From a virus (Duplodnaviria; Caudoviricetes): a stretch of 58,257 nt of DNA. The stretch spans positions 1 through 58,257 of the IMG/VR virus record IMGVR_UViG_3300027971_002004, one strand, 5' to 3'. The notes under the pieces were generated by a model. It saw only the letters and a program-made list of their open reading frames with translations, was not told where the DNA came from and ran no database searches. Below are positions 5,860 to 56,132 of the stretch, piece after piece (position 1 is the first letter of the stretch; the number at the start of each line of letters is the position of its first letter). The position numbers and the translations under genes were made by a program.

Positions 5860-5887
5860 ATATTAATATTTCTCGGTTGTATTTATT

Positions 5888-6586
5888 TTATAACCATAAT
5901 GGAGTTTTAATGATCCTACCCTGATCATTTACACGTGGCATATGAAATTTTGTCAGAGTCCACGGTCTATAATCTAATGTACCTACAGTCTTTTTTATTA
6001 AGCGAACACATTTGCCATGAAATGTAATCTCTATTTCTTTGTCTATAGCAAAATCAACAAATGCTCTGTAAATATGACAATGAGTAATATCATCACCAAA
6101 TATAAAGCCTCCTTCTGGCAAAAGATCCCAACAATAATTTAAATTATCTATTGTATCATCGTACATATGATTTGTATCTAGTAATATTCCAGATATAGGT
6201 TTTATACGTAAACTTTTACAATCTCCGGTATACAAAACAATATTACTAAAATCTTCTACTTGTAACTGTTGTACTGTTAGTAGATCGTTAACACTTAATT
6301 CAGGAAAATCAATACGATCTCTGAGGTCTACCATCATTGGATTATCCTCTGAAAAGGCAGTTGCAAAGTCATTTAAATCTATAGTATGTATACACATATT
6401 AGGTAATGCTTTGGCAAACATTACGGCTGTTCCTCCAATTAAGGTACCCAATTCTAGTATGTGTGATCCCGGGGGTAGTGTCGATAAACTCTCAATCATC
6501 CATTGTACATCCCAGGGCGGAATTGCTGAAAATGGCGTATCTAACAATTTTTGTTTTATATAACTTCTCTGCTCATCCGTTAGCAT
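5888..6586 (-). CDS. Class I SAM-dependent methyltransferase (Methyltransf_24-like)
   Basis: ILELGTLIGGT motif I, HTID, LLDTNH.YD, LPEGGFIFGDD. Start moved to ATG 6586 (MLTDEQ) to avoid a 130-nt overlap. Confidence 0.82.
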   Translation of the reverse strand: MLTDEQRSYIKQKLLDTPFSAIPPWDVQWMIESLSTLPPGSHILELGTLIGGTAVMFAKALPNMCIHTIDLNDFATAFSEDNPMMVDLRDRIDFPELSVNDLLTVQQLQVEDFSNIVLYTGDCKSLRIKPISGILLDTNHMYDDTIDNLNYCWDLLPEGGFIFGDDITHCHIYRAFVDFAIDKEIEITFHGKCVRLIKKTVGTLDYRPWTLTKFHMPRVNDQGRIIKTPLWL

Positions 6587-31700: not shown

Positions 31701-34700
31701 AATATAAAGTACTCTCATATGAACGTGTGGAACTATTTGGTAAAAGACCTTTTTGAATTTCATTATAATCTGTTACTTTCCAATCTTGTTCTTCAAACAC
31801 TTCTTTTGCATTTAATACTTTTAATGCAAACCAATATCTGTTTTTATACTTAACAATACTGCCACGAGTATATTTTGAATTAGTATTCCATTCTTCTATA
31901 TTATCTTGATTTAAGATGAAGCCTTGTGCATCAACTGTACCATTCCATTCAGCAGATTTTGTGCCCCTAGTTAAAATACGATTTTGTCTTAATCCAGTAG
32001 TCAAATTATATAAAACATCGTTGAATACTGTTACATTATCAAAAACAACACCATGCTCAAAATTGCTAATATTAAATTGACCGTATGCAACAGTATCACC
32101 TTCATTTAATGGTCTAGCACTAAAGAATGTACTATCACGATTTATAGACAAATCTACACTTTGTATTGGGTAAAAGTTTTGATTCAATATAAAGTTTTGT
32201 TTTTGTAAAGTCAATGGTTGTACCACATGACTATCTTTATTAATTGTAATCAAATTAGCGGCTGGATTTAAGTTAACTAAACTACCTATCTCCCAACCAG
32301 ATTGTGACCAATATAATAATTCAGTAATCATTTGACGCCAGTTAACATCTATACCAGATTCAATCTGGTCAAATAATACACCCTGAGTTAATAAGAATTG
32401 ACCATAACTAGCAACAAATTGACATAACGATTGTATGTCAACAAATTCAGTACCATATGGAATTATATTAGTTTTTGTTTCAGTATAATCATTTGCAATC
32501 TGTACTGAAACATCTCCTACAGTAATTTTGTTATAATTACCATTAATTTTAGGTGTTACCGTTGTAAAATATGCTGTATCCTGTGAGTTGCCAAAGACTT
32601 TCCAACCGGCGCTTGTGCTTTGTATAATAACTCCACTGTACACAATAGTAGTTGTGGGTATGTTATCATACAATATCATACTATAGCTTTCGTCAGGAAT
32701 TAATAATGACGCATTTCTACTATTTGGTGTTCCTTTTTCTACATAGAAGCCAAGTAAACTTTTATCACTGAATCCGGCGAGTCTATAAATTAATCTTACA
32801 TCTAGATTATCAAACAAATCAGTAATATTCTGTGTTGCATCAACCCCCATTTGTTTTTCGTAATCGACTATCCAATTCACATAACTTGTCTTAGCGGTGC
32901 CATTACCATATATGGCAACATCGCTAATAATTAAATGACTACGATTATTAACTAGATACTGTTTAAACTCAGTACTATATTTGTAGTTGTCTACGTCAAA
33001 CCCTAAATTAAAGAATTGAGCAGGTTTAGTAAGGGCAAGAATCTTCATTAAATCAAAAGGCCAGCTACTACTTCTACGATAGCTAAATTCTGCAGGGCCA
33101 ACATCACCAACTACCCAATCATTGCGGAAAGTTCGTTGACTATAATTACCCATGACAGCATCAAAAGGAGATAACAAATTGCCAGCAGTATCTACTGGTA
33201 TGACTTGTAACAATTCTTCTCTAATAAATTCAGGTAACACAATTGGATCACCGTTATTCCAATTAATGCCCGCTGCCATATCTCCCCATAATATTAAGTT
33301 ATCGCTTGTATAAGGAGCAGGGCCGTATCTAGTAGTCCACCAACTTGGTTCATCAGTGAAGCCAATCATTTCCCATGGACTTATATTTGGTGTGCTAGTA
33401 TCATAGAAATATTCATATATACCTCTCCAAAATCCTTGTTCAAACGCTTGACCATTAATCTTATTACCTGATTGATTATAGTTGTAACTATACTGGTCAG
33501 TTGACTGATAGAATTGCTTCTTATATTCAATACGATTTTGACCAACCCAGTTTAAGAAATATTGGCTATATATCTGCAATACTTCATCATATGAATAATC
33601 AGTAGTTCTAAAGAATCCCGGTATAACATCATATTTGCTTATCGGAATTAAATCTGACAATTTTAAGTTATTATAAACCCTAGTCTCAAATTCTAATAGT
33701 GCTTGATCTCTAAAATCAACTAAATATCCATCAATATAATCACCATATAACTTAGTATAAGAACCATCATGCCCTAATATAAAATATGTTGGTTGTGAAT
33801 AATCAGAATCCAATACAACACTCGGTATAAATGAAGGGTATAAACCCAATTTAGTTGGTGTGTTTGGAACAAAACTGCCAAATGTTTGATTATATTCTTT
33901 AATAGTCACGATATCACCGGGTAACAAATCTTTTGTAATAGTAAGTGACGGACTATCTATGCTGACCGTATAATCTTGAGCTATAACTAATTGCACAGTT
34001 GAAGTGACATTATTAATCGTTGTCGTCAAATAAACTAATACACCATAATAATTAGCAGTATCAAAATTATATATACGTGTTAATGGGTATATACTTACAT
34101 CTAAAGAATTAGCAAAGGTGTATGTATTTGTAGTATATGCCGATTTACTTGGCAACATATCACTCCAGAAAAAAGGTTCTGAATTTGTTTTATTTGCAGT
34201 AATTTGATCTAGTGCATCATCTAATATGAACGACGGTGTTTGTCTTATAGTATATTCTGTTTTATCTATTGTATAAACTAATAGTGATTTGAAATTTATA
34301 TATTGTTGACTATTATATTGTAATGAGTTAAACAAATTATAATTTGGTGATCTTAATAGTGACCCCGATAATGCCAATGAAGCACTGTTCTGAATAATTT
34401 TAGTACCCCATGGCACAAGATTTCCTAAATCTCTATAATTATTTGAACCAAAAATGACACCGGTTGTGTTTGGATTATTATAGAAAATACTTTGATACTG
34501 CCCACGTATATCACCTACATTTACTACAGTCACATCATCATTGAATGGATTATTTTGCAAGTTGATAGGTATTTGATAATATGCAGTAGGACTTACTTGG
34601 TCACTTAATAATGTAATCTCAACTACGGTATCAATTAATGGATTAGGTACGGTAAAATTTACTATCGTAGAATTTTCTGTAATAGTAAAAGTGTATGTTG

Positions 34701-37578
34701 ATGTATCCTGTAATACATTATTAACATAAACTTGAATATTAGGCCATACAGTATCTATTGAGGCAGCTATATCGCATGTATAGGTTGTTGTTGCTTCAGA
34801 TGCAATATAGTCAAAAGAAAAGATTTGATATTGACGGCTCTCTGCAACTGCTGTTTGCCAACCTAATTGTCTAATAACATTTGTTCTAGAAGTATAATTA
34901 TATACATAACCGGTATTAACTTTTTGCGTGATGGGGGATGACCCTTGTACATAATTGAAAATGGCACTATTTAACGGCACATCAAAACTTATATCACCTA
35001 CGTTATTAACTGAGCTATAGCGAAGCGGGAATCCTAATATTATATCCTTTATACCTGAACCAATTCCATAGCTGAACAACTTGTTTCCTGCAAATGAGGT
35101 ACCAACATATACATCGGTATCACCAAAGCTAATTCCATCATTGTCAAAAACATCAAAATACGGAGCTTGATTAACTGTAGTTTTTTGTTGTGATAATAAC
35201 CATATTATACCATCAAAGTAAAAATTCTTACCTTGATTATTATAACCCTTAAAGGCAAAGGTACATTCTAATGGTAGTACTAATCCATCAATTGCTTCCG
35301 TAAGAGTAATTAAAGATGTTCCGGTACCTTGTATATCAGAGAATCTTACAACATAAATTTTATCTTTAACATTTGAATCTGTATCAGCAGAAAATACAAT
35401 TCTTGCACCATCGTATAATGAATAGTTATCGTTAGATAAATCATTTGCAACCAATGAAGATGTTGTAGTAGACACAATAGTAGTAGGATCATTCCATGCT
35501 ACGGTAAGAGTGATGGTAGTTGTTCCGCTAATATCAGTAATTGTTGTATTTCTAGGAAGGACATTAGTAGTGTCATTTATATATTGACCAATTTGAAACG
35601 CACCAGTAATATCATCTGAATCTATTGTAATAGTTGTAGACGTTCCGGTAGTACTTGCAATTTGAGCAGTATATGCTGTATATACTTCAACATCCGGCCA
35701 ATAGTTTTCTTGTCCAGCCACATAACTAAAGGCATCAGTTGTTCTATCATCAAAGAAATCAATAGGAGCTTTACCTATAACTCCGTTATCAAATAATCTT
35801 AAGTTAGGATAGAATTCAATAATAGGGCGTTTAGCTTTATTATCTTGTGTGGCATAAAGTGTTGCAATGTTAGGGTTATTATTATATGTTGCTGTTGCAT
35901 TAATTACGTCTACATGGAACCATCTATTACTACGACTCCATGCATTCTTATCAATACTATTTCTTGATATAGTAATATAGTCTTGATACAAAGGAATATA
36001 CAAAGTACTATCAAAATTACCTATATCATATGGCAATGAATCGTATGGTGTGTAAGTTCCTGTAGTAAAGGGTTCTGGCGCAATTAATGTACTAGTATCT
36101 AATAATTCAATGAATGTGCCTACACCTTCTACATAATACTCACCTTCTTTATAACTTCTAGGAAAAATGTCACCCGAGAAACTTACTTTAAGACCATTTG
36201 TAAAAACTACACCATTCGGCGAAGTATATTGTTCTTTTCCTAATATAGTAGTAATGTCTAATTGATTTGTTGAATTACTTTCAATTAATCTAATGATACC
36301 TACTTTGTTTGGACTAGTACCATCTTGGTAATATAATGTATCTAATACTGCGCTTTGGTAAGGGATAAGGTTAATAGAACCAAAATTATTACGATAGAAA
36401 TCTCTTGCCTTCCATGCTGTGCCGTAATTTGCTGTAATTTTTTGATTTGTGGGAATACTTCCAGCGTATACTAGTCTTAACACAGGATCGGATATTGAAC
36501 CTTCATATGTAATTGTATAGAACGTAGCAGACACATCAGTATAATATCCACCTTCATAGTTTGCAAAATTTGTACTATTTCCCGGAGGAGTATATGGTGC
36601 TCCTCCATTTGGTGAAACAGATGAACTAGTTTCTTCATCATAGGTAGTAGTGTCATAGAACTTAGAAATATACCCTTGTTCATTTACAACACCGGTGTTG
36701 TAGAACATTACGGTTAAACCTTCTAGACTTGTTACGCCATCTATATTTGTAACGGTGCTTAACAACTGACCATTAATGTTATCATATGGTGTAGTGGATA
36801 CAACATCTACTTGATTACTACCGGGGAAATTGTAATCATCTTGTGCATTTTTGTATGGTACATTAAATGTTACAACACCTACGGTGGCTCCATTATTCTC
36901 TACACCTAATACATCGCGGGTTTGCACGTTGAGCTGTTGTGGATCATACCCGGTTACGCCCGGTTTTCCCTGTATCCAAAATTCAGTAGGTTGATTTACT
37001 GTAAAAGTATATGTGCCGCCACGAATTAATGTTAGTGTAGGGTTTGTTGTTCCGGCAGGATTAACGTCACTAGAAATATTATATCCATTGGGTAAACTTT
37101 GAACAGTATAGTCAGCCGCAGTGTAAACAATATCAGTTGAAATATTAACAACCGGGGCGCCAGTTGGTAACCAATAATATTGATTAAAGTTAATAATTTT
37201 ATCTAGGTTAGTAAAACTATCCCATGAGTAGAATTCACTATTAAACAATCTATCATTGTTATTTGTAATAGCACCTTCTAATCTTAATGCATCAATTATA
37301 CCCGGATAACTAATGAAATCTTTAGCAGTACTAGTGTTTGTTTTTGTAAACACAACACCTGGATCTAATTGATAATCTATTCTTGTTTTAGTAGGTTCAA
37401 CTACATAATTGTCTTTAGCATTAATACCGTAACCAAATCTGCTACCAATGTAACCTTCGATTTGCATCGTGTTTGGTTGGTCAACAATTTGATCCAGAGT
37501 TGCACCTAAAAATTGTGCATTAGTGGGTGTTTGAAATATTTCTGGTAAAAAGTTTAGTGTTCTAATTCGTGCTGCCAT
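19765..37578 (-). CDS. Giant 5,937-aa virion structural protein (baseplate wedge/fibre-like, multi-repeat)
   Basis: Uninterrupted 17.8-kb ORF right after the gp6-like gene; FG-GAP-like propeller motifs (FGYSIA, FGYSLD, IGAP, GAVY) and about a dozen beta-rich repeats; T/S/N-rich. Confidence 0.85.
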   Translation of the reverse strand: MAARIRTLNFLPEIFQTPTNAQFLGATLDQIVDQPNTMQIEGYIGSRFGYGINAKDNYVVEPTKTRIDYQLDPGVVFTKTNTSTAKDFISYPGIIDALRLEGAITNNNDRLFNSEFYSWDSFTNLDKIINFNQYYWLPTGAPVVNISTDIVYTAADYTVQSLPNGYNISSDVNPAGTTNPTLTLIRGGTYTFTVNQPTEFWIQGKPGVTGYDPQQLNVQTRDVLGVENNGATVGVVTFNVPYKNAQDDYNFPGSNQVDVVSTTPYDNINGQLLSTVTNIDGVTSLEGLTVMFYNTGVVNEQGYISKFYDTTTYDEETSSSVSPNGGAPYTPPGNSTNFANYEGGYYTDVSATFYTITYEGSISDPVLRLVYAGSIPTNQKITANYGTAWKARDFYRNNFGSINLIPYQSAVLDTLYYQDGTSPNKVGIIRLIESNSTNQLDITTILGKEQYTSPNGVVFTNGLKVSFSGDIFPRSYKEGEYYVEGVGTFIELLDTSTLIAPEPFTTGTYTPYDSLPYDIGNFDSTLYIPLYQDYITISRNSIDKNAWSRSNRWFHVDVINATATYNNNPNIATLYATQDNKAKRPIIEFYPNLRLFDNGVIGKAPIDFFDDRTTDAFSYVAGQENYWPDVEVYTAYTAQIASTTGTSTTITIDSDDITGAFQIGQYINDTTNVLPRNTTITDISGTTTITLTVAWNDPTTIVSTTTSSLVANDLSNDNYSLYDGARIVFSADTDSNVKDKIYVVRFSDIQGTGTSLITLTEAIDGLVLPLECTFAFKGYNNQGKNFYFDGIIWLLSQQKTTVNQAPYFDVFDNDGISFGDTDVYVGTSFAGNKLFSYGIGSGIKDIILGFPLRYSSVNNVGDISFDVPLNSAIFNYVQGSSPITQKVNTGYVYNYTSRTNVIRQLGWQTAVAESRQYQIFSFDYIASEATTTYTCDIAASIDTVWPNIQVYVNNVLQDTSTYTFTITENSTIVNFTVPNPLIDTVVEITLLSDQVSPTAYYQIPINLQNNPFNDDVTVVNVGDIRGQYQSIFYNNPNTTGVIFGSNNYRDLGNLVPWGTKIIQNSASLALSGSLLRSPNYNLFNSLQYNSQQYINFKSLLVYTIDKTEYTIRQTPSFILDDALDQITANKTNSEPFFWSDMLPSKSAYTTNTYTFANSLDVSIYPLTRIYNFDTANYYGVLVYLTTTINNVTSTVQLVIAQDYTVSIDSPSLTITKDLLPGDIVTIKEYNQTFGSFVPNTPTKLGLYPSFIPSVVLDSDYSQPTYFILGHDGSYTKLYGDYIDGYLVDFRDQALLEFETRVYNNLKLSDLIPISKYDVIPGFFRTTDYSYDEVLQIYSQYFLNWVGQNRIEYKKQFYQSTDQYSYNYNQSGNKINGQAFEQGFWRGIYEYFYDTSTPNISPWEMIGFTDEPSWWTTRYGPAPYTSDNLILWGDMAAGINWNNGDPIVLPEFIREELLQVIPVDTAGNLLSPFDAVMGNYSQRTFRNDWVVGDVGPAEFSYRRSSSWPFDLMKILALTKPAQFFNLGFDVDNYKYSTEFKQYLVNNRSHLIISDVAIYGNGTAKTSYVNWIVDYEKQMGVDATQNITDLFDNLDVRLIYRLAGFSDKSLLGFYVEKGTPNSRNASLLIPDESYSMILYDNIPTTTIVYSGVIIQSTSAGWKVFGNSQDTAYFTTVTPKINGNYNKITVGDVSVQIANDYTETKTNIIPYGTEFVDIQSLCQFVASYGQFLLTQGVLFDQIESGIDVNWRQMITELLYWSQSGWEIGSLVNLNPAANLITINKDSHVVQPLTLQKQNFILNQNFYPIQSVDLSINRDSTFFSARPLNEGDTVAYGQFNISNFEHGVVFDNVTVFNDVLYNLTTGLRQNRILTRGTKSAEWNGTVDAQGFILNQDNIEEWNTNSKYTRGSIVKYKNRYWFALKVLNAKEVFEEQDWKVTDYNEIQKGLLPNSSTRSYESTLYYDTNKSNLDQDSDLLSWSLIGYRPRDYLALADLTDITQVNVYKNLIKEKGTRIAANNFKGLSLPQGGINYDIYDNWAIKTGEFGGVLNNNFVDFRLNQNLLTSNPSIVGLTNGVYTNGVQQEVPIYNIFNYGRPINNPNVLPTLPTNTPNKVFPDAGYVNFNDVKISSYYYNGLNTAVTPLSNLYVNEYVWLADYSSTWQVYTPSSIGQVIGANNNMNGTVTIQFATPHNLIKYQPFAIINFNSNINGYRIVSSVVDNFRVTILLSISPSTTTILGQGVAFKFSSQRVATPKDINTLPLLDSEFVKNKVWVDENDDGSWAVYRKSLNYLYDDELFKTGSITYGSAVALTPNLGYLVTDAGVGAAYRYSYSPVFDSYSIVQTITNDTSFGSSISYSDNLFVISQPTGASYSDRKVYIYELVITTLVNELQEYQVIESPNNNSVLDWGSSVALSGDQNWLYISASDQNLVYVYRKSQLTGQYEYSNIVNTPAISNVGNLNVGGTYIIESIGTTDFIALGAPSNTIRTKFTCNASTQSGTGTVSTGGDNFGYSIATNYYGNNIVVSAPYQDSGVDDLGYAYSFERIVQTFEAPYTSLPYIPQTFSLIFQPTTLTKTASSILSNAITLDNVTSLSIAMPVIFTGIVYGEVSLNQVYYIKTIVGSTVTLSLTRGGATVVLLDTAGTMTLIAQYEPIFVSVNGTLIDDNSYGVSNSSINIYGSLTAGDIINVSGSEFVLTQEFTSLDSNPEVGTNFGYSLDVDTYANEILIGAPFEINNKNQEGAVYRYTYGGGSYGIITGYTPCDVTAEVTILINGYSVIIPAGDATLVASAIASANITNVTASASIDNILTIQVISIDLAYINAKLTVSVLDKEILNQLGIKIYTQTQLINDPHSQGRTEFGHTIKFNSAGSFIVGAPVSSRYAETTFDASDDENYDNDTLFDNNTTQFLDSFVNAGAVYMYDYLPVYNETASNPGAYVYAQSVNALNVDYGGQPYYGTALEFTNEYAMIGTPNFRPGYNNGQVVIYNNATGTPDWSMYRNSAPIVNIDAIQNAQLYSVSTNNTLDNLDYIDPLQGKILGAVRQNLDVISNADPANYNSPDATNKGSAVWGSGELGKLWFDTTTTKFVNYHQSDDVVYNSVWWGRVFPGSDVKVYSWVTSDVLPIAYQGPGTPNDFDNYVIQYKLNSTGSIVPVYYYWVRNTNIVFSKMGKTLSDTICESYISTPLATGISYMAPIQPNVFGLYNCTSDINANDTALHIGFATGTNDDVSHSVYSLIRSQYADDFLPGLPGIGDTLVPESLYNKMLESLSGVDQTGGVVPDPQLPKPVQSGILVRPRQSFFYNRFKALENYLTFYNEVLSQYPLTETSSLKFLFTKGEINPSTVGNPNWSGQPLFFYNTQDYWEVINWWAPGYDNNTKSSLLVESYYDLATINAQLGLIVTVNKNGDGLQETYVYDGIIWNRIGLQNGTIQFKSSLWDYAEARLGFGDNFFDTTPYDTFPSEETRYIIRALNEELPSSLLLYRNEALILLFEYIVSESIESQNYLPWLNKTSFIDVGHTIRELLPLEVYQSDNQEFLSGYLNEVKPYHVVIKDFLFKYTGSDNYLGNITDFDLPAEYSTQYEQYITPELVYSNPSNINQYLPSDPIWQTKPYVNWFNNQGLSITGITGYPITILSSYLTLNSSAMVVDNVYGFPTTGVVLIGTEQIAYSSVDRAYSTLSGLTRGVNNTPITNHIPGEQIIIDLPPILLLNGGRGYAEPPKVIAYIDTTIYPAPRRAAILEPVMNLDTILRIDVIDPGDGYQVLPEIIIDPSEIVTFPSTVVDVSTRTITLQTQFVQTGDLVKYYVGTDTTPIGGLDEGQYYYLAVLESNPFYVVALYTTYADALQDHDRVLFTNTGSGDNNKIAVSARASCVSTSAPVRENNIKLKFDRTTYTSRVTEWAPNNFYGSFYAGLFNNSTRIASSSITLESTQPPVDTILASAQGATFEIQDVTNDQLLVWSSLVRSVSETIHSGSINLVRLTYSSTEPNASGSTIGFYVGMPIKFTGAVGPVIVNETIYYVAEIINESDFSISTTAGGSVLILTNYNVTAAGMSCYAGEVTNTAIVTIAYPGILNVTTTETTSNFITVPLLPTGTGGTAGFYVGLPVYFVGSVFGGIVENETYYITTVIDSETFTISTDNDPLILNVTGTVDLGDKVTVSSTLELAVNNPIIFTGTIFGGIIAGQVYYIRSIVDGTHITIADVLNGGAVPLTTASGSCTLTSQTTALPLTNATGSMTMNVGLPVSPGQVNGQQFTFYPTIDSVGVAVSGTNTTLLTRDIVATTDNGNYLYVSYLSGGITNIYNNLPFKVTSSIGGLSTSTLYYVLSNGTLSVEVASSSSSTNTFTLSTGETTIGFYVDMPISFSGLVYGNTVALVTYYINSYVTGGDQFTITDKLGGVLATEIESGKTYTIYSLGTTDFTTLGASSNTKGLSFVASRDGTISDGTGRASAQFILTTFNGSMTLTADNPYVTLSASLGGSEVTLTTQIKETIFIQNPTLVPTFNVGTKLGGYIIDIINPGAGYTFDNVITIPGTALTFNGVSGLSPLNDLVLTVSNVDVITSTPFVSNGTITGVIGSGTSGGDVNQYYLKVITAIECEVYSDALMTVPVNGITLGTEYSLGDYVFLPEPFYFNQSIVKYNNAVWQCIISNNDNEFILGKWELMDSGDRKLNELDRIVGYYQPNVNMPGLDLTQLVSGIIYPNGTYLGNAFAPEDQYTLDTELQDKSFNLIADTIYNVQGDPFLSGYGPEELVPGLISDNLSMIVTTRPGTDWDASIYGHVGFNVVSTEIMPNTNQTEFSFNRIVENPANMSLFDIDYSNNLSTRIYNFTVDWVNKIITLSAPLASTRGLRLDLYEVGNGDQLVKSNSQVIPFVDNIITGFVEMPLNCNYSASRFNGSGVIRPTTDPKEVTAIETDALDNGIVCDNVDYFLVNSPITFEGAVFGGITTNTTYYVKTLSHITNKITVSTTSVSGIAGPTFDVTSGTGSMLVNIQSTNGLVWTDPIIIHNGTNLVLGEQGIISETMSGTNTIIVNSTDHYEVGDTIIFSNAIEIGSFAECGLMAQTTYYITSIIGNEFTVSTTLGGSDVVLNDATGIALCVTNDYAITLADQGITAKLVFSSQYNQNDDFVVLSIFGETAPIQYGYTVPETQIFTLTNTTTEFVLRNFVGQDNADNAIVEYNGLRLTNNADYTINSATGTLNLSFTPSVGSIISVTTYNLTDRQYLNTTYGGTFGGSSTTILTIGNTTHNVGSYDQNVPTAQTYDQNTPSVVPYDMNLNYLTLSLGDTSSLTVNDAIRFNSPTLGGIIANQIYYVLQIINSTDFTISENPGGESIILTTDSGSMIGITNPPTVANIVSINNTIVNTIASTNISNTTAPHTITGGLTTGFIIGQSIMFKDSTATGFGNVLANGKVYYISYVDPNGVDFEVSDTINLATNVPGSPITVTTASGSMVAYVGGNESIVVTTGIPHNLSEDDLVRIDSVLGSTELNNNTYYAKVINPTQIGLYYTSYNPTLSYVNSPVTQVSSYYGNGYVWLDRLFTLETTNVYSTNVSTNGITVASTSQLIPGTPLVFTGTAFGGIQSLVTAGSFIIGNTYQITETGTTTWTNIGSLNNDSGTTFVATGVGSGTGIATAIYYVNEITSAYEFSVTAVRDGEIYQLTTATGSMNVTQWEQTNVDRLWVTVNGYRIPSSGLYLNSQNNLSILTVIQPGDVVIITNMIPTATPNETVYIENVNKSNQQSIFRSNTLTRTWLTYGLQDVDDVIYVEDVSRVTESIIQEVTAPAVSVDDTMSIGLNGDKSAISQVIVYNNTTSLTIDPADYTIVVENVAPVLLIDINPSTPAIAPGDDLTITVILGNLIYINGEQIRYTTVNFDENTLSGLQRGANGTGKQTYIPKYTTVYGVLPSNMLPELYNGFSWNSFNYNLVDGDPLQISTTYPANFLNADVP

Positions 37579-47704: not shown

Positions 47705-49794
47705 TACCAAATACCTCCACCTGAACGTTTACTTCCTCGTAATAATGCACCTGTTGCATATTCTTTGAGACTGAATTTATTGCTGATATCATTTCTTGTA
47801 ACTATAGGTATACATGTTATTTGCAATTGTATTTTTGTAGGTATATACGTTGCTTCAGAGTTAATCATTGTATTTTGTGTTGTGAAGTTTGGTACTTTGG
47901 GTGCTAACCCATTCATTGCTACCCTTACTACGGGCGGGACAAAACTATTTAATACGGGTTTTTGTTGGGATATATTTACTCCCGGTTGATTAGTTTGACT
48001 GCCTGCTCTAATATAATCTACTTCTGTTGGAGTGGTATATGTAAAATTAGTCACAACCAATGGGTGTGCATCAAAAGTATATGCTCCAAACCCACTCAAG
48101 TAACATAATGGTGGGGGTACTCCGTTATTTGGATTCTTATCCTGCCCATAAAACATTTTAGTAACACTACGAAAAAAATGTATCACCGCTAATAAGTAAT
48201 TTGCTTCAGTTGTATCTTGTGCAGTAAAATCCGCAGTAATAGATACAGTATCTACACTACTTCCCTTATATTGATAAACTTTATAGTTACTATGTATTAA
48301 GTCACTTGCATCATATCCTGCGCTGTATGTAACTGAAATTGCCGGAGTATATGGAAAAATTACTCCATCGGTTGATTGCAGTGGTGCTAATATACCTGCT
48401 TGCCCTGCAGGTACTTTATATAAATAATTAGCACCTGGAGATAGACTTAATCTTGCTCGCCAATCTGGTTTCTGTTGAAAATTAGCACTATCATCTTTTG
48501 TTGCTGTACTACGGGTATCATTTAATGCAGTAGATATACCTTTACCGCCGCCACCAACTGCGGCATCTTGTGCATCTAAATCAGCTTGTGCCTTATTTGC
48601 GGCAACTTGTGCATCTATCCCATCAAACTCATCAGGTACTTTTTGTAGAGTAATAGTTTCTTCTTGTGCTGCCGCTAATCCTAACTGTTGTTCTACTTCT
48701 TCATCAGATAATAGAGGAGGTTCTTGTAATGCGTTTTCATTAGCGGCTATTTGGTCATCTATACCTGCAAATTCTAATGATCCATCTTCTAAATCTTTTT
48801 GTCTTTGTACTTGTTCATCTATACCACTAAACTCATCTCCGTCATTGGTAATGGGAGGTTCTTGTAATGGGTCATAAACTAAATCTTGTGCTTCTGTTCC
48901 AATGTTAGTGTTGGGGTCACTATTTGGATTTATTGGTTGTGGTGTTTGTATTTGTGCCTCTGCACCAATGTTAGTATTAGGATCGCTGGCAAGAGTTATT
49001 GTTTGTTGAGGTTGAGGTGCCGGTGTTTGTGAGTCATTACCAATATTAGTATTAGGATCAGTATTAGGGTCTACAAGTTGTTGCGGTTCTGCATTAGCAT
49101 CTAAGAAGGCAGCATTAGTGGCTGCATTTTGTCCAGTAGCAGGCGTTGTTGCATTTTCAACTGCGGGTACAATAGGGGCGGGTGTGGTAGGGGTAGTAGG
49201 GGCAGGGGTAGCATTTTGCACACGGTTATTCAATGCATTTACTACTAATGCTCCTCCACCTATGACTGCGGCAGCAGTTAATACGTTGGAAATTGTTGAG
49301 TTTGATGTGTTAATAGACGGTGCTGTTGTGCTTGCAGGTGTTGTATTTGTTGGTAATGTGGTTGCGGGTATGGCTGCCGGCTGTACAGCCGGCACTGTCC
49401 CTATACCGGCTTTGGGCAAAGTAGCTGGATTTGCTTTTAATTCTTGTAGACTATTCAACACCCCTTGCTCAATATCAATAAGTTCTTGTCCAGTTATAGT
49501 GGTAGGAGGAGTATATCCAGGTGGAATAAACTGCTTAAGTTTAGATTGTACTTCTCCCGGTAATGATGAAAATGGTACCGGGTAAGTATAAGGTGAGGCT
49601 CCGGAAGTTAATTGTAAACTACCTAATAACTGTTTAGTTGCGTTAATATCTACTGAAGTAGATGTAATTAATTTATCCAAATTTACAATGTTTATTGCAG
49701 TAGTGTTAGGTTGTGTTACACCGTTATTAGCCATAGATACATCTTTTGCGTACTGTATCTTTTGTGCAGGTGTCAGGCTTGAATATGATGGCAT
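47704..49794 (-). CDS. Putative tail tube initiator / baseplate-tube junction protein with low-complexity N-terminus
   Basis: C-terminal GVIFPYTPAI, FFRSVTKMFYG, PPPLCYLSGFG, LVVTNF, VDYI; N-terminal 430 aa is P/T/Q/D-rich with repeats. Confidence 0.6.
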   Translation of the reverse strand: MPSYSSLTPAQKIQYAKDVSMANNGVTQPNTTAINIVNLDKLITSTSVDINATKQLLGSLQLTSGASPYTYPVPFSSLPGEVQSKLKQFIPPGYTPPTTITGQELIDIEQGVLNSLQELKANPATLPKAGIGTVPAVQPAAIPATTLPTNTTPASTTAPSINTSNSTISNVLTAAAVIGGGALVVNALNNRVQNATPAPTTPTTPAPIVPAVENATTPATGQNAATNAAFLDANAEPQQLVDPNTDPNTNIGNDSQTPAPQPQQTITLASDPNTNIGAEAQIQTPQPINPNSDPNTNIGTEAQDLVYDPLQEPPITNDGDEFSGIDEQVQRQKDLEDGSLEFAGIDDQIAANENALQEPPLLSDEEVEQQLGLAAAQEETITLQKVPDEFDGIDAQVAANKAQADLDAQDAAVGGGGKGISTALNDTRSTATKDDSANFQQKPDWRARLSLSPGANYLYKVPAGQAGILAPLQSTDGVIFPYTPAISVTYSAGYDASDLIHSNYKVYQYKGSSVDTVSITADFTAQDTTEANYLLAVIHFFRSVTKMFYGQDKNPNNGVPPPLCYLSGFGAYTFDAHPLVVTNFTYTTPTEVDYIRAGSQTNQPGVNISQQKPVLNSFVPPVVRVAMNGLAPKVPNFTTQNTMINSEATYIPTKIQLQITCIPIVTRNDISNKFSLKEYATGALLRGSKRSGGGIW

Positions 49795-49921: not shown

Positions 49922-50827
49922 ATGTCCCTACCCTCACGCAAACCTGTCAACTATTTAAATAATAAAGACATTCTAAAAGAGATTCACGAAAGCAAAAACG
50001 CTTATTGTTACTTTGCAGACCCAAGCTATCATCGCTATGACTTCATTGTAGATATGCCCCAATCTAGTATGGAAGACAGCTTAGAATATGCTTTCAAAGC
50101 AGAAACTATTCAACAAGCTAAAGAAACACGTGCTTTAAGATTAAGTTTAGAACAAGGTAGTAAAGATGCTGTTAGTCCAGATTCAATCAACATAACAGAT
50201 TTAGTATTTCGTGTAATGACTTGGGATCATGTTCCGGTTGCACCAAAACAGCCCCGCAAAACAGTTAAAAAGAAAACAGCAAAGGATATCTTTGATTTTG
50301 AGGAACCAGATCCAGATGAAATCTTTGCTGACCTAGAAGATAATACTACTAAAGCTGAAGTGGATGATATGGTCCATGTTAAAGTTAACTTTCCCCCATT
50401 CCAACATTTTAAAATTGACGCAAATAATACATTTAAATGTGTGGGTAAAAGTCATTGGGACGGTGATTTAGAAACAGGTGTCTTTAATAAAGATCATGGT
50501 AAAATTACAAACAAACTTGCCCGTATGTACATTATGATGTGTGAAAAATACGCAATGAAATATAATTGGCGTGGGTATACGTACAATGATGAGATGCGTA
50601 ATAGTGCTATCCTTCAACTAACATATGTTGGATTACGATTCAATGAAGCTAAAAGTGCAAACCCATTCGCATATTACACAGCCGCTATTACTAATAGTTT
50701 CTGTAGAGTATTGAATACGGAAAAACGTAATCAAAACATACGTGATGATATACTAGAAATCAATGGTCTCAACCCAAGTTGGTCACGACAGGGTATCGGG
50801 TCAAGTTCTACAGTATACGAAGAATAA
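49922..50827 (+). CDS. gp55: Late-transcription sigma factor (T4 gp55-like)
   Basis: NYLNNKD N-terminus; NWRGYTYNDEM, FNEAKSANPFAYYT...NSF; adjacent to gp47/gp46 as in T4-like phages. Confidence 0.82.
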   Translation: MSLPSRKPVNYLNNKDILKEIHESKNAYCYFADPSYHRYDFIVDMPQSSMEDSLEYAFKAETIQQAKETRALRLSLEQGSKDAVSPDSINITDLVFRVMTWDHVPVAPKQPRKTVKKKTAKDIFDFEEPDPDEIFADLEDNTTKAEVDDMVHVKVNFPPFQHFKIDANNTFKCVGKSHWDGDLETGVFNKDHGKITNKLARMYIMMCEKYAMKYNWRGYTYNDEMRNSAILQLTYVGLRFNEAKSANPFAYYTAAITNSFCRVLNTEKRNQNIRDDILEINGLNPSWSRQGIGSSSTVYEE

Positions 50828-50834
50828 TTTAACC

Positions 50835-50860
50835 AAAGCCGTTGCTAATGTAACGGCTTT
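50835..50860 (+). terminator. Stem-loop after gp55, overlapping a sigma70 -35 element
   Basis: AAAGCCGTTGC-TAAT-GTAACGGCTTT, 11-bp stem with one G-T pair and a short T tail. Confidence 0.5.
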
Positions 50861-50870
50861 ATTATATAAT
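50842..50870 (+). promoter_or_regulatory. Sigma70-type promoter for a probably leaderless gp47 mRNA
   Basis: TTGCTA-17 nt-TATAAT; ATG at 50877 follows after 6 nt with no SD sequence. Confidence 0.7.
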
Positions 50871-50876
50871 AAACGA

Positions 50877-51893
50877 ATGAGTAACCTTTTCAAAAAAGCC
50901 GCTGTTTTTACCGACATTCACTTTGGTCTTAAGTCAAACAGCCTACAACATAACCAAGACTGTGCCGATTTCGTAGATTGGTTCATTACTAAAGCAAAAA
51001 AAGAAAACTGTGAGACATGTTTCTTCTTGGGCGACTATAATCATCATCGTGCAAGTATTAACATTCATACATTACAATTTGGACTACAAGCATTGGAGAA
51101 ACTAAGTGCTAACTTTGATACTGTATATTTTATACCAGGCAATCACGATCTTTATTATCGTGACCGTAGGGACATTCATAGCGTTGAGTGGGCTAAACAT
51201 CTACCAAACGTTAAGATCGTCAACGACTTCTTCAGTCAAGGAGATGTAGTTATTGCTCCATGGCTTGTGCATGATGACTACAAGGAATTACAAAAAATGA
51301 GTGGCAAATATATGTTTGGACATTTTGAATTACCTTATTTTCACATGAATGCTATGGTAGAGATGCCCGATCACGGTGAGATTAACGAAGACCATATGAC
51401 TGGCTTTGAAAAAGTATTCAGTGGTCACTTTCATAAACGTCAAGCACGTAAAAACATTTGGTACATTGGTAACGCTTTCCCACATAACTATGCTGATGCA
51501 GGTGATGACGCCCGGGGCATGATGATATTAGAATGGGGGACTGAGCCAGTATTTCATACATGGCCAAGACAGCCCGTGTTCCGTGTTCACAAACTAAGTG
51601 ATATCTTAGAAAACCCTGAGGGCTTGCTATTGATTGACAGCCATGTTAGAGTACATCTTGACATTGAAATCTCATATGAAGAAGCAAACTTCTTGCGTGA
51701 GACATGGATACCAGAACATAAACTAAGAGAGATGGCATTGATTCCTATGAAAGTAGAAACAAATGAGAACGGTCAAACGGCTGACGGACTAAAGTTCGAA
51801 AGTGTTGACCAAATTATTATTGACCAGATTAACTCAATTGAATCAAATAATTTTGATAAAAAGATTCTTTTGGACATTTATAACAACCTATGA
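50877..51893 (+). CDS. gp47: Recombination endonuclease subunit (gp47/SbcD/Mre11 metallophosphoesterase)
   Basis: FTDIHFG, FLGD, PGNHD, GHFE, SGHFH. Start reassigned to 50877 (MSNLFKK). Confidence 0.92.
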   Translation: MSNLFKKAAVFTDIHFGLKSNSLQHNQDCADFVDWFITKAKKENCETCFFLGDYNHHRASINIHTLQFGLQALEKLSANFDTVYFIPGNHDLYYRDRRDIHSVEWAKHLPNVKIVNDFFSQGDVVIAPWLVHDDYKELQKMSGKYMFGHFELPYFHMNAMVEMPDHGEINEDHMTGFEKVFSGHFHKRQARKNIWYIGNAFPHNYADAGDDARGMMILEWGTEPVFHTWPRQPVFRVHKLSDILENPEGLLLIDSHVRVHLDIEISYEEANFLRETWIPEHKLREMALIPMKVETNENGQTADGLKFESVDQIIIDQINSIESNNFDKKILLDIYNNL

Positions 51894-53962
51894 TTACATT
51901 ACAAGACATTACATTACGGAATTTTTTATCTATTGGACAAGTAACACAAGCAGTTGACTTTGACAAGAAAGACTTAACACTTATTCTAGGTGAGAATTTA
52001 GACTTAGGTGGTGATGGTGCTCGTAATGGTACGGGCAAGACTACCTTGATTCAAGGATTATCCTATGCATTGTTTGGTACGCCCATTAATAACATTCGTA
52101 AGGATAATTTAGTTAATCGTACAAATGGTAAGGGTATGATGGTTACATTGACATTCAATGTCAATGGCACAAACTATAAGATTGAGCGTGGTCGTAAACC
52201 AAACATTCTTAAGTTCTATGTAAATGATATTCAAGATAAAGCTTCTGAGGATCAACAAGGTGAGAACAAAGAGACACAAGCGGCAATTGAAAAAGTTATC
52301 AATATGTCAGCCGATATGTTCCGTCACATTGTTGTATTGAATACATATAGCGAACCATTCTTAGCGTTAAAAAATAACGAACAAAAAGATATCATTGAAC
52401 AGTTGATGGGTATTACGTTGCTAAGTGAGAAGGCTGAAATCATTAAAGAGATGATTCGCCGTAGCAAAGATGATATTCAGCAAGAGGAGTTTCGTGTTAA
52501 AGCTATTGAAGAAGCTAACAAGCGTGTCAAGGAACAGATTGACGCATTAAAGCGTAGGCAAACATTGTGGCTAAAGAAGCATGATGATGATTTGACTAGT
52601 TTGGCACTTCAGTATGATGAACTAAGCAAAATCAACATTGAATTAGAGTTACAAGCACATAAAGATTTGAATGTTTGGACAAAACAAAAAGAAGCACAAG
52701 ATACGTACAATGCATTAGTTGCACGTTCTACTGCTTGGCAACAAAAACATGATACTGACGTTTCAATAGCACACAAAGCCTATTTGCTTAAAAATGAATA
52801 TGACATTGAAACTGAACTTAAAATATGGACTGATTTAAAAGAATGGCTTAAGGATGAATCTGAACAAAAGATTATTGCTACCGCAATTGATACCCAAAAT
52901 AAAAATATCACAAAAGAAAAAAAAGCAATCGATAAATTGGTTCGGGAAATAAAAGAACTTGAAGATAACAAGTGTTATGCTTGTGGTCAAGACTTCCATG
53001 ATGACAAACATTTAGAAGTTACATTAGAAAAAACTACATTACTTGAGAATACAAAAGCTGATTTAGCAATTATGGAAGATCATTTAGAGTCTAACCAATC
53101 AGCACTCAAAGATATAGGTACTAAACCTACTCCGTCATATAAAACTGAAGCAGAAGCTATACGTCACAGTGGTGATGTATCTAACTTAAAGAAAGTTTGG
53201 GAAGATAAAAAACAAGAATCTAATCCTTTTAGTGAACAACTAAGTGAGTTGACTCCTATAGTTTTAGGTCCTCAACCTGTTACTCACTATGACACAGAAG
53301 CAGAGGCAATCAAACATTCAAGTGAGGTTGCTAACATTTTAAATCAAATTGATAACAAGTCACAAGAGACTGATCCATATTCAGAGCAAGTTGTTGAAAT
53401 GGAAACACAAGCACTTCAAGCAATTGATTTTGAAGCTATCAATAGATTGACACGTACAATGGAACATCAAAAGTTTTTGTTAGATTTGTTAACTAGCAAA
53501 GATAGCTTTGTTCGTAAGAAAATTATTGACCAAAACTTAAGTTACTTGAACGCAAGATTGACACATTACTTAGATAAGATTGGTCTACCGCATCAAGTTA
53601 TCTTTAAGAATGACTTGCAGGTTGAGATTACAGAATTAGGGCGTGAACTTGACTTTGATAACCTAAGTCGGGGTGAACGCAATAGATTAATTCTTGGTTT
53701 GAGTTTTGCTTTCCGTGATGTTTGGGAATCATTATATAGTCCTATCAATACATTGTTCATTGATGAATTGATTGATAGTGGGCTTGACACAATGGGTGTT
53801 GAGAACAGTCTTGCAATTCTTAAAGATATGTCACGTAGACGACAAAAATCTATTTGGCTTGTGTCACACAGAGAAGAACTAGCAGGTCGTGTACCAAACG
53901 TTCTCAAAGTTGTTAAAGAAAATGGTTTTACCTCATACAATACTGCGGTAGATATAGAATAA
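51890..53962 (+). CDS. gp46: Recombination ATPase subunit (gp46/SbcC/Rad50)
   Basis: RNFLS, Walker A NGTGKTT, CYAC zinc hook, LSRGE signature, LFIDE Walker B, VSH. Confidence 0.93.
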   Translation: MITLQDITLRNFLSIGQVTQAVDFDKKDLTLILGENLDLGGDGARNGTGKTTLIQGLSYALFGTPINNIRKDNLVNRTNGKGMMVTLTFNVNGTNYKIERGRKPNILKFYVNDIQDKASEDQQGENKETQAAIEKVINMSADMFRHIVVLNTYSEPFLALKNNEQKDIIEQLMGITLLSEKAEIIKEMIRRSKDDIQQEEFRVKAIEEANKRVKEQIDALKRRQTLWLKKHDDDLTSLALQYDELSKINIELELQAHKDLNVWTKQKEAQDTYNALVARSTAWQQKHDTDVSIAHKAYLLKNEYDIETELKIWTDLKEWLKDESEQKIIATAIDTQNKNITKEKKAIDKLVREIKELEDNKCYACGQDFHDDKHLEVTLEKTTLLENTKADLAIMEDHLESNQSALKDIGTKPTPSYKTEAEAIRHSGDVSNLKKVWEDKKQESNPFSEQLSELTPIVLGPQPVTHYDTEAEAIKHSSEVANILNQIDNKSQETDPYSEQVVEMETQALQAIDFEAINRLTRTMEHQKFLLDLLTSKDSFVRKKIIDQNLSYLNARLTHYLDKIGLPHQVIFKNDLQVEITELGRELDFDNLSRGERNRLILGLSFAFRDVWESLYSPINTLFIDELIDSGLDTMGVENSLAILKDMSRRRQKSIWLVSHREELAGRVPNVLKVVKENGFTSYNTAVDIE

Positions 53963-53995: not shown

Positions 53996-54562
53996 ATGTC
54001 AAGTCCACAAAAAGCAAAAGGATCAGGTTTTGAGCGAGAAATTGCTAAATATCTTTCAGAGAAGTACGGTGAAAGTTTCATTCGTGCTCCCGGATCCGGT
54101 GCTTATATTGGTGGAAAGAATCAATCAAGAACCCAAGTACTACATGAAGGTCAGATTAGAAGCTTTAAAGGGGACATAGTTCCTGGACAGACTTTTACTA
54201 AGATGAATGTAGAATGTAAGTTTTATGCTGATTTTCCGTTTCATTTATTACTTTCAGGGGAATGTAAAGTGATAGATGCTTGGCTAGAACAACTCATGGA
54301 TGTAGCTGATCCTGACGATTGTAATATTCTTTTTATGAAGTTCAATCGTAAGGGTCGTTATATTGCTGTACAAAGCAAACTAACATGGGTTACTGACAAT
54401 TTCTTGTATTATACAAGTCCTAAATTAGGAGATTGGATAATTATGGAGTTTGACAGTTTCTTCTTAAACAACAGTCAATTATTAAAAGCATATTCAGGCT
54501 CACCAGACACCACGTCAAATCAAACTATTACAAATAACAACATCCTCACAATAGCAACTTAA
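53996..54562 (+). CDS. Putative Holliday junction resolvase (Hjc-like PD-(D/E)XK nuclease)
   Basis: KAKGSGFEREIA, R.PGSGA, GDIV, VECKFY; ATAAGTA box at 53984-90. Confidence 0.75.
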   Translation: MSSPQKAKGSGFEREIAKYLSEKYGESFIRAPGSGAYIGGKNQSRTQVLHEGQIRSFKGDIVPGQTFTKMNVECKFYADFPFHLLLSGECKVIDAWLEQLMDVADPDDCNILFMKFNRKGRYIAVQSKLTWVTDNFLYYTSPKLGDWIIMEFDSFFLNNSQLLKAYSGSPDTTSNQTITNNNILTIAT

Positions 54563-54574
54563 TTAAAATAAAAA

Positions 54575-54965
54575 TGTGTCGTCCTGGTTGCAGGACCTCC
54601 TTGAGTTTGTACAGATTGTGCTGTGCTGACGGATCTGGAGTAAGCGTGTATAGCGATATACACGGAATACCGAGAAGGCAATCGACAAAGCGAACCTTCA
54701 ACAAGTCTATTGATATTTTGTCTTGAATCAATAGAATGTGCGTTGCTGAATGAAACACAAATGTGCGTAAATTCAACTACAATCCCATATACTTTACAGA
54801 GCAACCGGTAGCATTTAATAGCATCAAATAGCTAATTAAATGGGGAATAGATAACACTGGATGACGGTCGTGCAAAACAACCTTTACCATTGGTAGTGCT
54901 GAATAGCACTACCATGGCTTCAAATCGGCAATATAGTCTTTAATAAAAAAGAATTTAAAGATTAG
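54575..54965 (+). ncRNA. Candidate large structured non-coding RNA (unassigned family)
   Basis: Dense series of stems: 54581-96; 54609-26; 54645-64 with a GCGA GNRA loop; 54674-99; 54706-35; 54805-60; 54891-914; 54934-64. G-U pairs fit the plus strand. Confidence 0.55.
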
Positions 54966-54979
54966 ATAACCGTAAACAA

Positions 54980-55022
54980 TAAGAACGAACGAAGTGAGTT
55001 CTTAGATGAACGAAGTTCATCT
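54980..55022. repeat. Two tandem C(GAA)G hairpins
   Basis: TAAGAAC-GA-AC-GAA-GT-GA-GTTCTTA and AGATGAAC-GAA-GTTCATCT. Confidence 0.75.
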
Positions 55023-55077
55023 TTACAAAGAAACAATATAATAACCCGATGTGATAAATGAACAGTTACGGATTTGC

Positions 55078-55305
55078 TTAGAAGAATGGCAATTGTGATT
55101 TCTTAGTCACTTCCATATTATTATCAATAATTTTCTTAATTTCTTCTCGCTCATCTGAGGACATGTTTAATATATCTTCATATGTTACACCACCTCTCAT
55201 ATACCAACTCATACTAAGAGCATTTTTCTTAATATTGGTACACTCTTCTTCCATATTATCTATCAGCTTCTTTACACCCTCGTGTTCAAGGTGTAGAAGC
55301 CTCAT
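55078..55305 (-). CDS. Small tail/baseplate assembly protein; probable -1 frameshift extension of the upstream gene
   Basis: SWYMRGGVTYEDILNMS..ER motif; ATGA overlap with the upstream stop, in the -1 frame, with no clear SD sequence. Confidence 0.7.
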   Translation of the reverse strand: MRLLHLEHEGVKKLIDNMEEECTNIKKNALSMSWYMRGGVTYEDILNMSSDEREEIKKIIDNNMEVTKKSQLPFF

Positions 55306-55314
55306 CCGAAAAAA
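55266..55314 (-). promoter_or_regulatory. Putative -1 programmed ribosomal frameshift signal
   Basis: Slippery T TTT TTC (55314-55308), 7-nt spacer, then hairpin 55300-55266. Confidence 0.65.
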
Positions 55315-56132
55315 TCAGATGTATTTAACGTAAAGGGTTGTTCATATTCATGTTGACAATGCATACAACGAATTTTCAATGGTTTGATTTCTGTCTGTGC
55401 TTTAAGATTACTATTATGATCTCTGATAGCAACATAAGTATCTCTGTCACAATTTTGTAGATAATCCAATATATATTCTCTTTCTTCTACAAAAGCACTA
55501 GGAGTTTTGATATGTGTAATAGTTTGTGATAGTATACGCATTGTAACATCAGTAATAAATTTCAATGCCTGTTGAGTTTTCTTTATTTTAACAGTTTCAT
55601 CTTCTTCTTTTTCTAACTGAATAAACATTCTTTGTGCTTCCATTTGACCAGTACCAGCTTCATTCATTTCTTTATAAGTCAGTGGTCTAAATTTAATTGA
55701 TAGATCATTTAAAACTAATTCTTCATTATAATCAGCAGATTTAAGTTGACTTAATATTCCTATCAAATTGACTGCATATTCTGCAAATTCTTTACAACTT
55801 GGGCATTCTGATGCTACACTCATATCGTTTCCACCAGCAGCCGACCTAATTGCTATTAATACAGCATCCAAGTCAATACTATTGATTGACCATGGGTCTT
55901 TAATATCAGGTATACAGCTTTTGATGATATCTACCATTGCAGTTCCATTATACAGTGCATCCGGTGTTTTTGCACTAATTTCATCGATAGCGGTCATTGG
56001 ATATACTGCTAATTCTCCAGACTCTGGTATAGTTAACACAGATGGTGAATACATTGTACCACCACTGGGCAATTTTAAATAAATTGAAGGTCTGCGAAAA
56101 TATTGCTTTAAAGGGTTGTTTTGAATAGTCAT
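55302..56132 (-). CDS. gp26: Baseplate hub assembly/tail chaperone protein (T4 gp26-like)
   Basis: IYLKLPSGG, YPMTAIDE, DLDAVLIAIR, CPSC, IKFRP, CMHC, terminal DFFG. Confidence 0.72.
   Translation of the reverse strand: MTIQNNPLKQYFRRPSIYLKLPSGGTMYSPSVLTIPESGELAVYPMTAIDEISAKTPDALYNGTAMVDIIKSCIPDIKDPWSINSIDLDAVLIAIRSAAGGNDMSVASECPSCKEFAEYAVNLIGILSQLKSADYNEELVLNDLSIKFRPLTYKEMNEAGTGQMEAQRMFIQLEKEEDETVKIKKTQQALKFITDVTMRILSQTITHIKTPSAFVEEREYILDYLQNCDRDTYVAIRDHNSNLKAQTEIKPLKIRCMHCQHEYEQPFTLNTSDFFG

Follow-up and report, generated by a model that had tools for sequence, protein, structure and literature searches.

A Large Folded RNA Downstream of a Resolvase-like Gene in Uncultured Jumbo Phages: Very Probably a New Functional RNA

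The subject of this investigation is a non-coding gap located at positions 54563-55077 of a phage DNA stretch of 58,257 bases, hereafter referred to as the window. The window corresponds to the complete IMG/VR virus record IMGVR_UViG_3300027971_002004, which is rated 12% complete and thus implies a genome of several hundred kb. Very probably, the gap encodes a folded RNA of ~360-450 bases that falls outside all known RNA families and represents a new functional RNA. The element is positioned on the + strand directly after a gene for a resolvase-like nuclease. As demonstrated by compensatory changes, a single-stranded molecule of + strand polarity folds into the shape described below, and this fold has been kept in every relative examined. 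Selection has preserved not only the shape but also many unpaired nucleotides across a large phage clade.

Covariation was counted across 111 distinct copies, which MAFFT had aligned blind to structure. Standard pairs occupy 94.5% of the 13,415 pair cells, a value that falls to 34.7-43.7% once the 3' partners are shifted by one to three columns. Both-sided changes are observed for 76 of the 123 pairs as compared to 28-37 after such shifts, and none of 500 shuffles matched the observed pairing, double-change count, or covariation score. From 60 copies, RNAalifold derived a structure with 95 pairs, and both-sided changes are present in 51 of them. A model-free mutual-information scan of 112 copies likewise recovers the hairpins and indicates both pseudoknots of the model. 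The most divergent members retain every helix with new compensatory changes; in the first pseudoknot, PK1, three of the six pairs have changed together. Finally, among the cells of the modelled pairs G-U outnumbers A-C by 775 to 202, and therefore the structure belongs to the + strand.

A preliminary description of the window had proposed a candidate novel large non-coding RNA at this site and had named, beforehand, a search of known families and an analysis of covariation in syntenic gaps between the resolvase and baseplate hub genes as checks. Covariation is clearly present in the 111 distinct copies, and Rfam 15 gives no confident match. Along with two pseudoknots that had been overlooked, the strand asymmetry, and the lack of a coding signal, these results uphold the proposal. 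The pairings suggested at that time fared unevenly. Nine of the 11 local stems persist among the relatives, where they show compensatory changes, and two do not. The stem CCGGT/ACTGG is canonical in only 71% of its cells and contains no double-change pairs, with CCGGT pairing instead to UACCG at 54668-72. The stem TAGTCTTTAA/TTAAAGATTA, which is 50% canonical, is not conserved and lies in a variable linker. With respect to the long-range pairings, GTTGCT/AGCAAC was correctly identified (96.7% canonical, three of six pairs with double changes) and constitutes helix L2 of the model. The two others, GGTTGC/GCAACC and GTCGTCC/GGATGAC, are 78% and 88% canonical with zero and one double-change pairs, respectively, and are not supported.

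A search of IMG/VR with the resolvase-like protein yielded 193 relatives, and all 80 of the loci that were kept carry the element directly 3' of the gene, with nucleotide identities of 71-98%. By means of a 33-letter pattern of invariant positions, at least 119 further viral contigs were located; when one genome was scanned for each of 185,579 species of bacteria and archaea, the same pattern had no matches. A profile search revealed exactly one copy at each of 198 loci. The resolvase-like gene is found upstream in all 175 loci having at least 700 nucleotides of upstream sequence, and a gene for a 75-residue protein together with the hub gene is found downstream in all 163 loci having at least 1300 nucleotides on that side. 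When the search was repeated with the resolvase of the most divergent member, 568 relatives were returned from IMG/VR, and again all 80 of the loci kept contain the element, two copies being cut by contig ends. In sum, all 278 related loci examined (198 plus 80) carry the element, always directly after a resolvase-like gene. Five genomes of 303-525 kb, four of which are rated 100% complete, contain one copy each.

All copies reside on IMG/VR viral contigs. The RNA is still recognizable in phages whose resolvase and hub proteins show identities of 60-70% and 44-50%, respectively. Among cultured phages, protein comparisons place Salicola SCTP-2, Sinorhizobium Phosso, Pseudomonas PA5oct, and Agrobacterium Atu_ph07 closest, none of them exceeding 45% identity. 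A blastn search of 50,697 phage records produced no match to the element. An nhmmer profile search of the SCTP-2, Phosso, and PA5oct loci failed to reveal a homologue. The same was true for a covariance model, designated R1 and built on the central domain at 54668-54810, when run over the whole records of these three phages; the best expectation value (E), 0.246, was obtained at an unrelated place in SCTP-2.

The structural model was drawn in window coordinates with all parts on the + strand. Its core, delineated by positions 54576 and 54931 (356 nucleotides), consists of 12 helices and two pseudoknots and is closed by helix P1 (54576-54580 with 54927-54931), which is 84.9% paired and is predicted by RNAalifold as well. 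Between the resolvase stop codon and this first helix lies a conserved A-rich leader, AUAAAAAU (54568-54575), the columns of which are nearly invariant in the alignments. The leader may serve in RNA processing or belong to a promoter. Its 9-mer is not enriched in the window (seven found versus 7.9 expected); were the leader at 54568-75 a -10 element, transcription would begin inside hairpin A and exclude P1. Hairpin A (54581-54596) contains six base pairs, is 95.6% paired, and displays both-sided changes in every pair. Hairpin B (54597-54640) is formed by two helices, 98.9% and 93.1% paired, with both-sided changes in one of six and four of six pairs. The CUCC/GGAG base of hairpin B is nearly invariant, and its upper part varies and is replaceable. 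Together with its neighbors (54596-54605), the 5' strand of this base may resemble the end of 16S rRNA that carries the anti-Shine-Dalgarno sequence, and the 3' strand (54637-54640) may resemble a Shine-Dalgarno box; no conserved start codon follows. Hairpin C (54645-54664) is composed of eight base pairs, all with both-sided changes, and ends in a GNRA-type tetraloop in most copies. Two members, L185 and L093, have insertions of ~20-45 nucleotides in it.

The central multi-branch domain (54668-54810) is closed by helix L1 (54668-72 with 54806-10), which is 100% paired with a double change in one of five pairs. Within the domain are hairpin D (54674-54699; 100% paired, double changes in two of eight pairs), hairpin E (54701-54739; 96.6%, ten of 11), helix L2 (54742-47 with 54800-05), hairpin F (54748-54774), and a conserved junction (54775-54799). 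The helices of hairpin F are only 62% and 56% paired in the MAFFT alignment, where they are misaligned; in each of the 40 commonest variants (~90 of 112 sequences), the region nevertheless folds into a hairpin, although the sequences that form it are very different. Two pseudoknots tie the domain to downstream strands. In PK1, the loop of hairpin E (54718-54723) pairs with 54849-54854 (97.0% paired, double changes in five of six pairs), and in PK2, the UCCC of the junction (54783-54786) pairs with the GGGA at 54843-54846 (96.5%, four of four). Hairpin G (54812-54842), with 11 base pairs, is 98.3% paired and shows double changes in nine of them. It is followed by the 3' strands of PK2 and PK1 (54843-46 and 54849-54) and then by a conserved single-stranded stretch that extends to 54865.

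Hairpin H (54866-54882), which carries a GCAA-type loop, is 85.1% paired with double changes in two of five pairs. Hairpin I (54887-54917) is built from 13 base pairs and is 98.5% paired. Four of its pairs never vary, four change on one side, and three change on both sides, such that the stem sequence is nearly invariant. This near-invariance suggests sequence-specific recognition. Beyond the core is an AU-rich variable linker (54932-54980) that ranges from 19 to 119 nucleotides with a median of 51 and has a median minimum free energy of -1.1 kcal/mol across the 111 copies. The conserved element ends with hairpins T1 (54981-55003) and T2 (55004-55022), which are 97-99.5% paired with double changes in 13 of 16 pairs. 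Both have C(GAA)G loops that are kept while the stems covary, and this motif occurs nowhere else in the window. T1 and T2 probably form the 3' end of the RNA or a protein-binding site. Two additional pairings, one between the 3' arm of T2 and a conserved box at 55053-62 and the other between 54971-76 and 55066-71, were dropped, as the relatives do not contain compensating changes. Overall, the peripheral parts (upper B, C, F, and the linker) vary in length, and the junctions are invariant with many of their nucleotides fixed. The invariant stem sequence of hairpin I, the invariant junctions, and the conserved T1/T2 loops suggest that a protein or another RNA recognizes the molecule specifically.

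The genes of the window are tightly packed. At 515 nucleotides the gap is the longest, the runners-up being 170 and 127 nucleotides, and so the earlier impression of a single long gap was accurate. Note that a greedy cover with open reading frames also lists a gap at 5860-6572, which is in fact covered by overlapping frames, and shortens the gap at 54563-55077 through one spurious frame. The interval originally assigned, 54563-54970, is real but too short: the gap extends to 55077 and the conserved element to ~55022. As had been noted, the gap lies between convergent genes, one on the + strand (53996-54562) and one on the - strand (55078-55305), and is comparatively rich in G+C: the RNA core reaches 41.6%, whereas the window has 34.6% and the two next-longest gaps have 27.6-30%.

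Upstream of the RNA is a + strand operon that opens with a gp55-like late sigma factor (49922-50827; PHROG 12791) and continues with an Mre11-like phosphoesterase having a Metallophos domain (50763-51893) and a Rad50-like ATPase with AAA_23, SMC_N, and zinc hook assignments (51890-53962). Its last gene (53996-54562) encodes the resolvase-like PDDEXK nuclease of 188 residues, which matches Pfam PF24608 (PDDEXK_15) with an E of 4.6e-24 and PHROG 244, 'RusA-like Holliday junction resolvase', with an E of 1.1e-19. Downstream of the RNA and convergent with it are, on the - strand, the gene for the 75-residue protein (55078-55305) and that for a gp26-like baseplate hub (55302-56132; Pfam T4_baseplate, E of 7.8e-12; PHROG 150, baseplate hub).

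Hairpin A, which begins 19 nucleotides downstream of the stop codon of the resolvase gene, has no U-tract behind it, and a scan of 54300-55300 on both strands revealed no terminator-like sites. Accordingly, read-through from the resolvase gene is expected, and since no terminator separates that gene from the RNA, the latter is predicted to be part of the operon transcript. In the divergent members there is likewise no U-tract after T1 or T2, and the tails that follow T2 are A-rich. T1/T2 is not a canonical intrinsic terminator.

On balance, we lean toward a stable folded RNA that is transcribed with the operon and engages a partner by way of its tertiary structure. Transcription would proceed rightwards, with the RNA as the tail of the late-sigma/Mre11/Rad50/resolvase operon. 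The RNA would then persist as a stable folded molecule and, through its tertiary structure, would bind a protein, another RNA, or its own copies. Its mode of action would be similar to that of other ornate phage RNAs and would involve neither simple antisense pairing nor a DNA site.

Several observations weigh against this assignment. The closing helix, P1, is the weakest of the model, with one-sided changes (U-G to C-G) in four of its five pairs and both-sided changes in none. Members L081-L198 were found through a sequence pattern inside hairpin D, which inflates the apparent invariance there; the sets ascertained by protein are free of this bias. There is no convincing promoter belonging to the RNA itself, as six promoter-like sites were found versus 4.6 expected and none is located at the 5' end. 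The metatranscriptome data, from four runs, consist of assembled contigs of relatives that extend over the flanking genes and possibly include DNA, and as such they cannot show ends, strand, or level. In a sequencing-run search, 24 runs were listed, every one with a share of 0.20 or less. An 11-mer complementarity scan of the window for a partner or antisense target gave 29 matches, which is approximately the level expected by chance in AT-rich DNA. Lastly, SCTP-2, Phosso, and PA5oct are without a detectable homologue, and thus the RNA is dispensable for some phages that carry this gene module.

It is possible, albeit unlikely, that the element instead works in cis, as the 3' untranslated domain of the resolvase operon, namely a large folded block between convergent units that would halt or slow read-through from either side and shield the operon mRNA from 3' exonucleases. 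This reading is favored by its location: in 163 of 163 loci it sits exactly between the convergent genes, and it comes immediately behind the stop codon of the resolvase. The absence of a terminator ahead of the element and the presence of two conserved hairpins at its 3' end favor it too. In these respects, the placement and the hairpins ending the upstream operon, the element is similar to structured 3' ends and bidirectional terminators. It differs from them, however, in its size, its pseudoknots, its sequence invariance, and its lack of a canonical stem-plus-U-tract. Two pseudoknots, invariant junctions, and a stem of invariant sequence far exceed the needs of a barrier. Ordinary terminators drift fast, whereas T1 and T2 keep their loop sequence and in divergent members have no U-tract after either. 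Furthermore, cultured relatives with the same gene module manage without the element.

That the RNA is a ribozyme, either excising itself from the operon transcript or catalyzing another reaction, we regard as improbable. Its size, pseudoknotted core, GNRA-type loops, and invariant unpaired nucleotides are features common to large catalytic RNAs, and a helix closing the 5' end onto the 3' end is compatible with a processed RNA. The sequence names no cleavage site, however, and the known families are silent. Rfam 15 contains 4227 models including GOLLD, ROOL, OLE, RNase P, tmRNA, group I and II introns, riboswitches, and small ribozymes; when the whole window was scanned with cmscan at the gathering thresholds, there were no matches. 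At an E of up to 10, eight weak hits were obtained for the window, the best of which (E of 0.2) was to a snoRNA model with a score of 20.6 bits versus a gathering threshold of 60. The divergent members L125 and L185 gave two and zero weak hits, respectively, with no family in common, and no ribozyme, intron, or RNase P model was matched in any of the three sequences. ARAGORN detected neither tRNAs nor tmRNAs in the 58-kb window. The preliminary failure to match the element to a tRNA, tmRNA, RNase P, or intron has thus been reproduced with Rfam and ARAGORN. A resemblance to RNase P, group I introns, or tmRNA was considered and rejected: the order of helices differs from those of the known folds, and both programs are silent.

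An element acting at the level of DNA (for instance a replication origin, packaging site, or recombination hotspot) in which the hairpins would form as cruciforms or in single-stranded DNA is very improbable. The gap does adjoin genes for recombination and replication nucleases, and neither strand, taken by itself, folds markedly better than the other; relative to 100 shuffles, the folding energies correspond to z = -3.82 for the + strand and -4.59 for the - strand, with no shuffle as good for either. The excess of G-U over A-C and the covarying loop-to-strand pseudoknots, however, would be expected where a single strand of one polarity folds, not in duplex DNA, and for this reason the origin and packaging site once offered as alternatives are disfavored. 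In addition, the alignment contains no direct repeats or iteron-like arrays, and the cumulative GC-skew minimum of the window falls near 48.8 kb, away from the gap.

The gap is not a missed protein gene, and a small gene of this type or one in another genetic code can be set aside almost entirely: although the window copy contains open reading frames of 50 residues on the + strand and 76-81 residues on the - strand, the aligned copies show no three-base periodicity in substitution (0.174/0.191/0.170 by phase) and no conserved frame, the longest stop-free stretch differs among copies from 48 to 129 residues, and the insertions and deletions are not multiples of three.

The folded operon RNA that we favor belongs to a new RNA family, found in no curated one, yet of a known general kind, namely the large ornate phage RNAs of unknown function. 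Full-text literature searches turned up no description of the element. According to the account given by Kretsch et al. (bioRxiv 10.1101/2024.12.08.627333), GOLLD and ROOL are encoded by phages or prophages, measure several hundred nucleotides, contain multiple pseudoknots supported by covariation, form RNA-only cages, and often occur near tRNA islands; their function and protein partner are described there as unknown. The RNA investigated here is similarly phage-encoded and large, with multiple covariation-supported pseudoknots. Unlike GOLLD and ROOL as described in that preprint, it matches no Rfam model in sequence or structure, is smaller (a core of ~356 nucleotides as opposed to ROOL and the >800 nucleotides of GOLLD), and has no nearby tRNA genes, with none in 58 kb. 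It occupies instead a fixed site after the resolvase gene in jumbo phages. Palindrome-switching loops, as in GOLLD or OLE, were not seen upon inspection of the alignment by eye. Size, the absence of tRNA neighbors, the fixed post-resolvase site, and an occurrence so far only in uncultured jumbo phages (~300-525 kb) set the new family apart.

In PA5oct, four transcribed regions free of open reading frames, ncRNA001-004, have lengths of 236-619 nucleotides, and two of them are abundant throughout infection (Lood et al. 2020, PMC7318152). Their function is unknown, and the available text of that report describes no conserved structure. As in the present case, these are elements without open reading frames in a related jumbo phage, and the function is unknown for both. 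By the coordinates given in that text, however, they sit at 8.3, 22, 103, and 246 kb, and the PA5oct resolvase is at 75 kb. When the complete PA5oct record (286,783 nucleotides) was searched with R1, no match was found at an E of up to 10, and the PA5oct RNAs are not homologous to the new one.

The corresponding loci of the cultured phages contain features of their own. In Phosso, where the hub-to-resolvase synteny is the same, a stretch of 1,014 nucleotides without annotated genes separates RNase HI from the resolvase homologue (L200:2987-4000). It forms strong hairpins, with minimum free energies of -300 and -318 kcal/mol for the two strands, and gives no R1 or Rfam match. This stretch may be an unrelated structured RNA occupying the same place in a cultured phage. 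In PA5oct, an ORF-poor region of 1.5 kb, with four annotated frames of 117-153 nucleotides, lies between the hub and resolvase genes (L201:2479-3991). None of the four published non-coding RNAs maps there by their reported positions.

Other features of the window were recorded in the course of the analysis. The minus-strand late (structural) genes with start codons ending at 18940, 40976, 49794, 41474, 37578, and 5859 share an A/T-rich box, AGATAAATA, located ~15-30 nucleotides before the start codons. This box, which resembles the late-promoter type of T4-like phages, fits the gp55-like sigma factor of the phage itself (49922-50827). A copy of the late-promoter-like box is also present on the + strand in a conserved block 3' of the RNA (55052-55071), where it is directed into the antisense of the 75-residue protein gene. 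Adjoining this block is a conserved TTACGG, which may be the Pro-stop codon pair of that gene in relatives. Within the structural gene block, a single - strand open reading frame of 5,937 residues (19765-37578) stands out for its size, even by jumbo-phage standards. Finally, positions 48801-49600 show a local rise in G+C (0.43-0.44) and in GC skew (+0.21 to +0.31). This rise falls within the gene for a virion structural protein of 696 residues, near the cumulative GC-skew minimum of the window.

Conserved bacterial and phage RNAs of more than ~300 nucleotides with pseudoknotted cores are rare, and those that are understood have proven to be ribozymes, ribonucleoprotein scaffolds, and, recently, RNA-only cages. 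We raise, with considerable reserve, the prospect that the RNA defines a new class specific to jumbo phages, be it a ribozyme that folds in a new way or, like GOLLD and ROOL, a particle made of RNA only, that would be made together with the late sigma factor and recombination nucleases and would be needed for one step of infection. If so, it would constitute a new catalytic or self-assembling class that might, for example, handle the ends of phage RNA or DNA or neutralize host defense. With hundreds of natural variants, a constrained secondary structure, a single copy per genome, and a fixed position, the family is usable for covariance models, structure determination, and tests of function. 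It also brings a further RNA to light in phages with genomes of 300-500 kb, the biology of which is poorly known.
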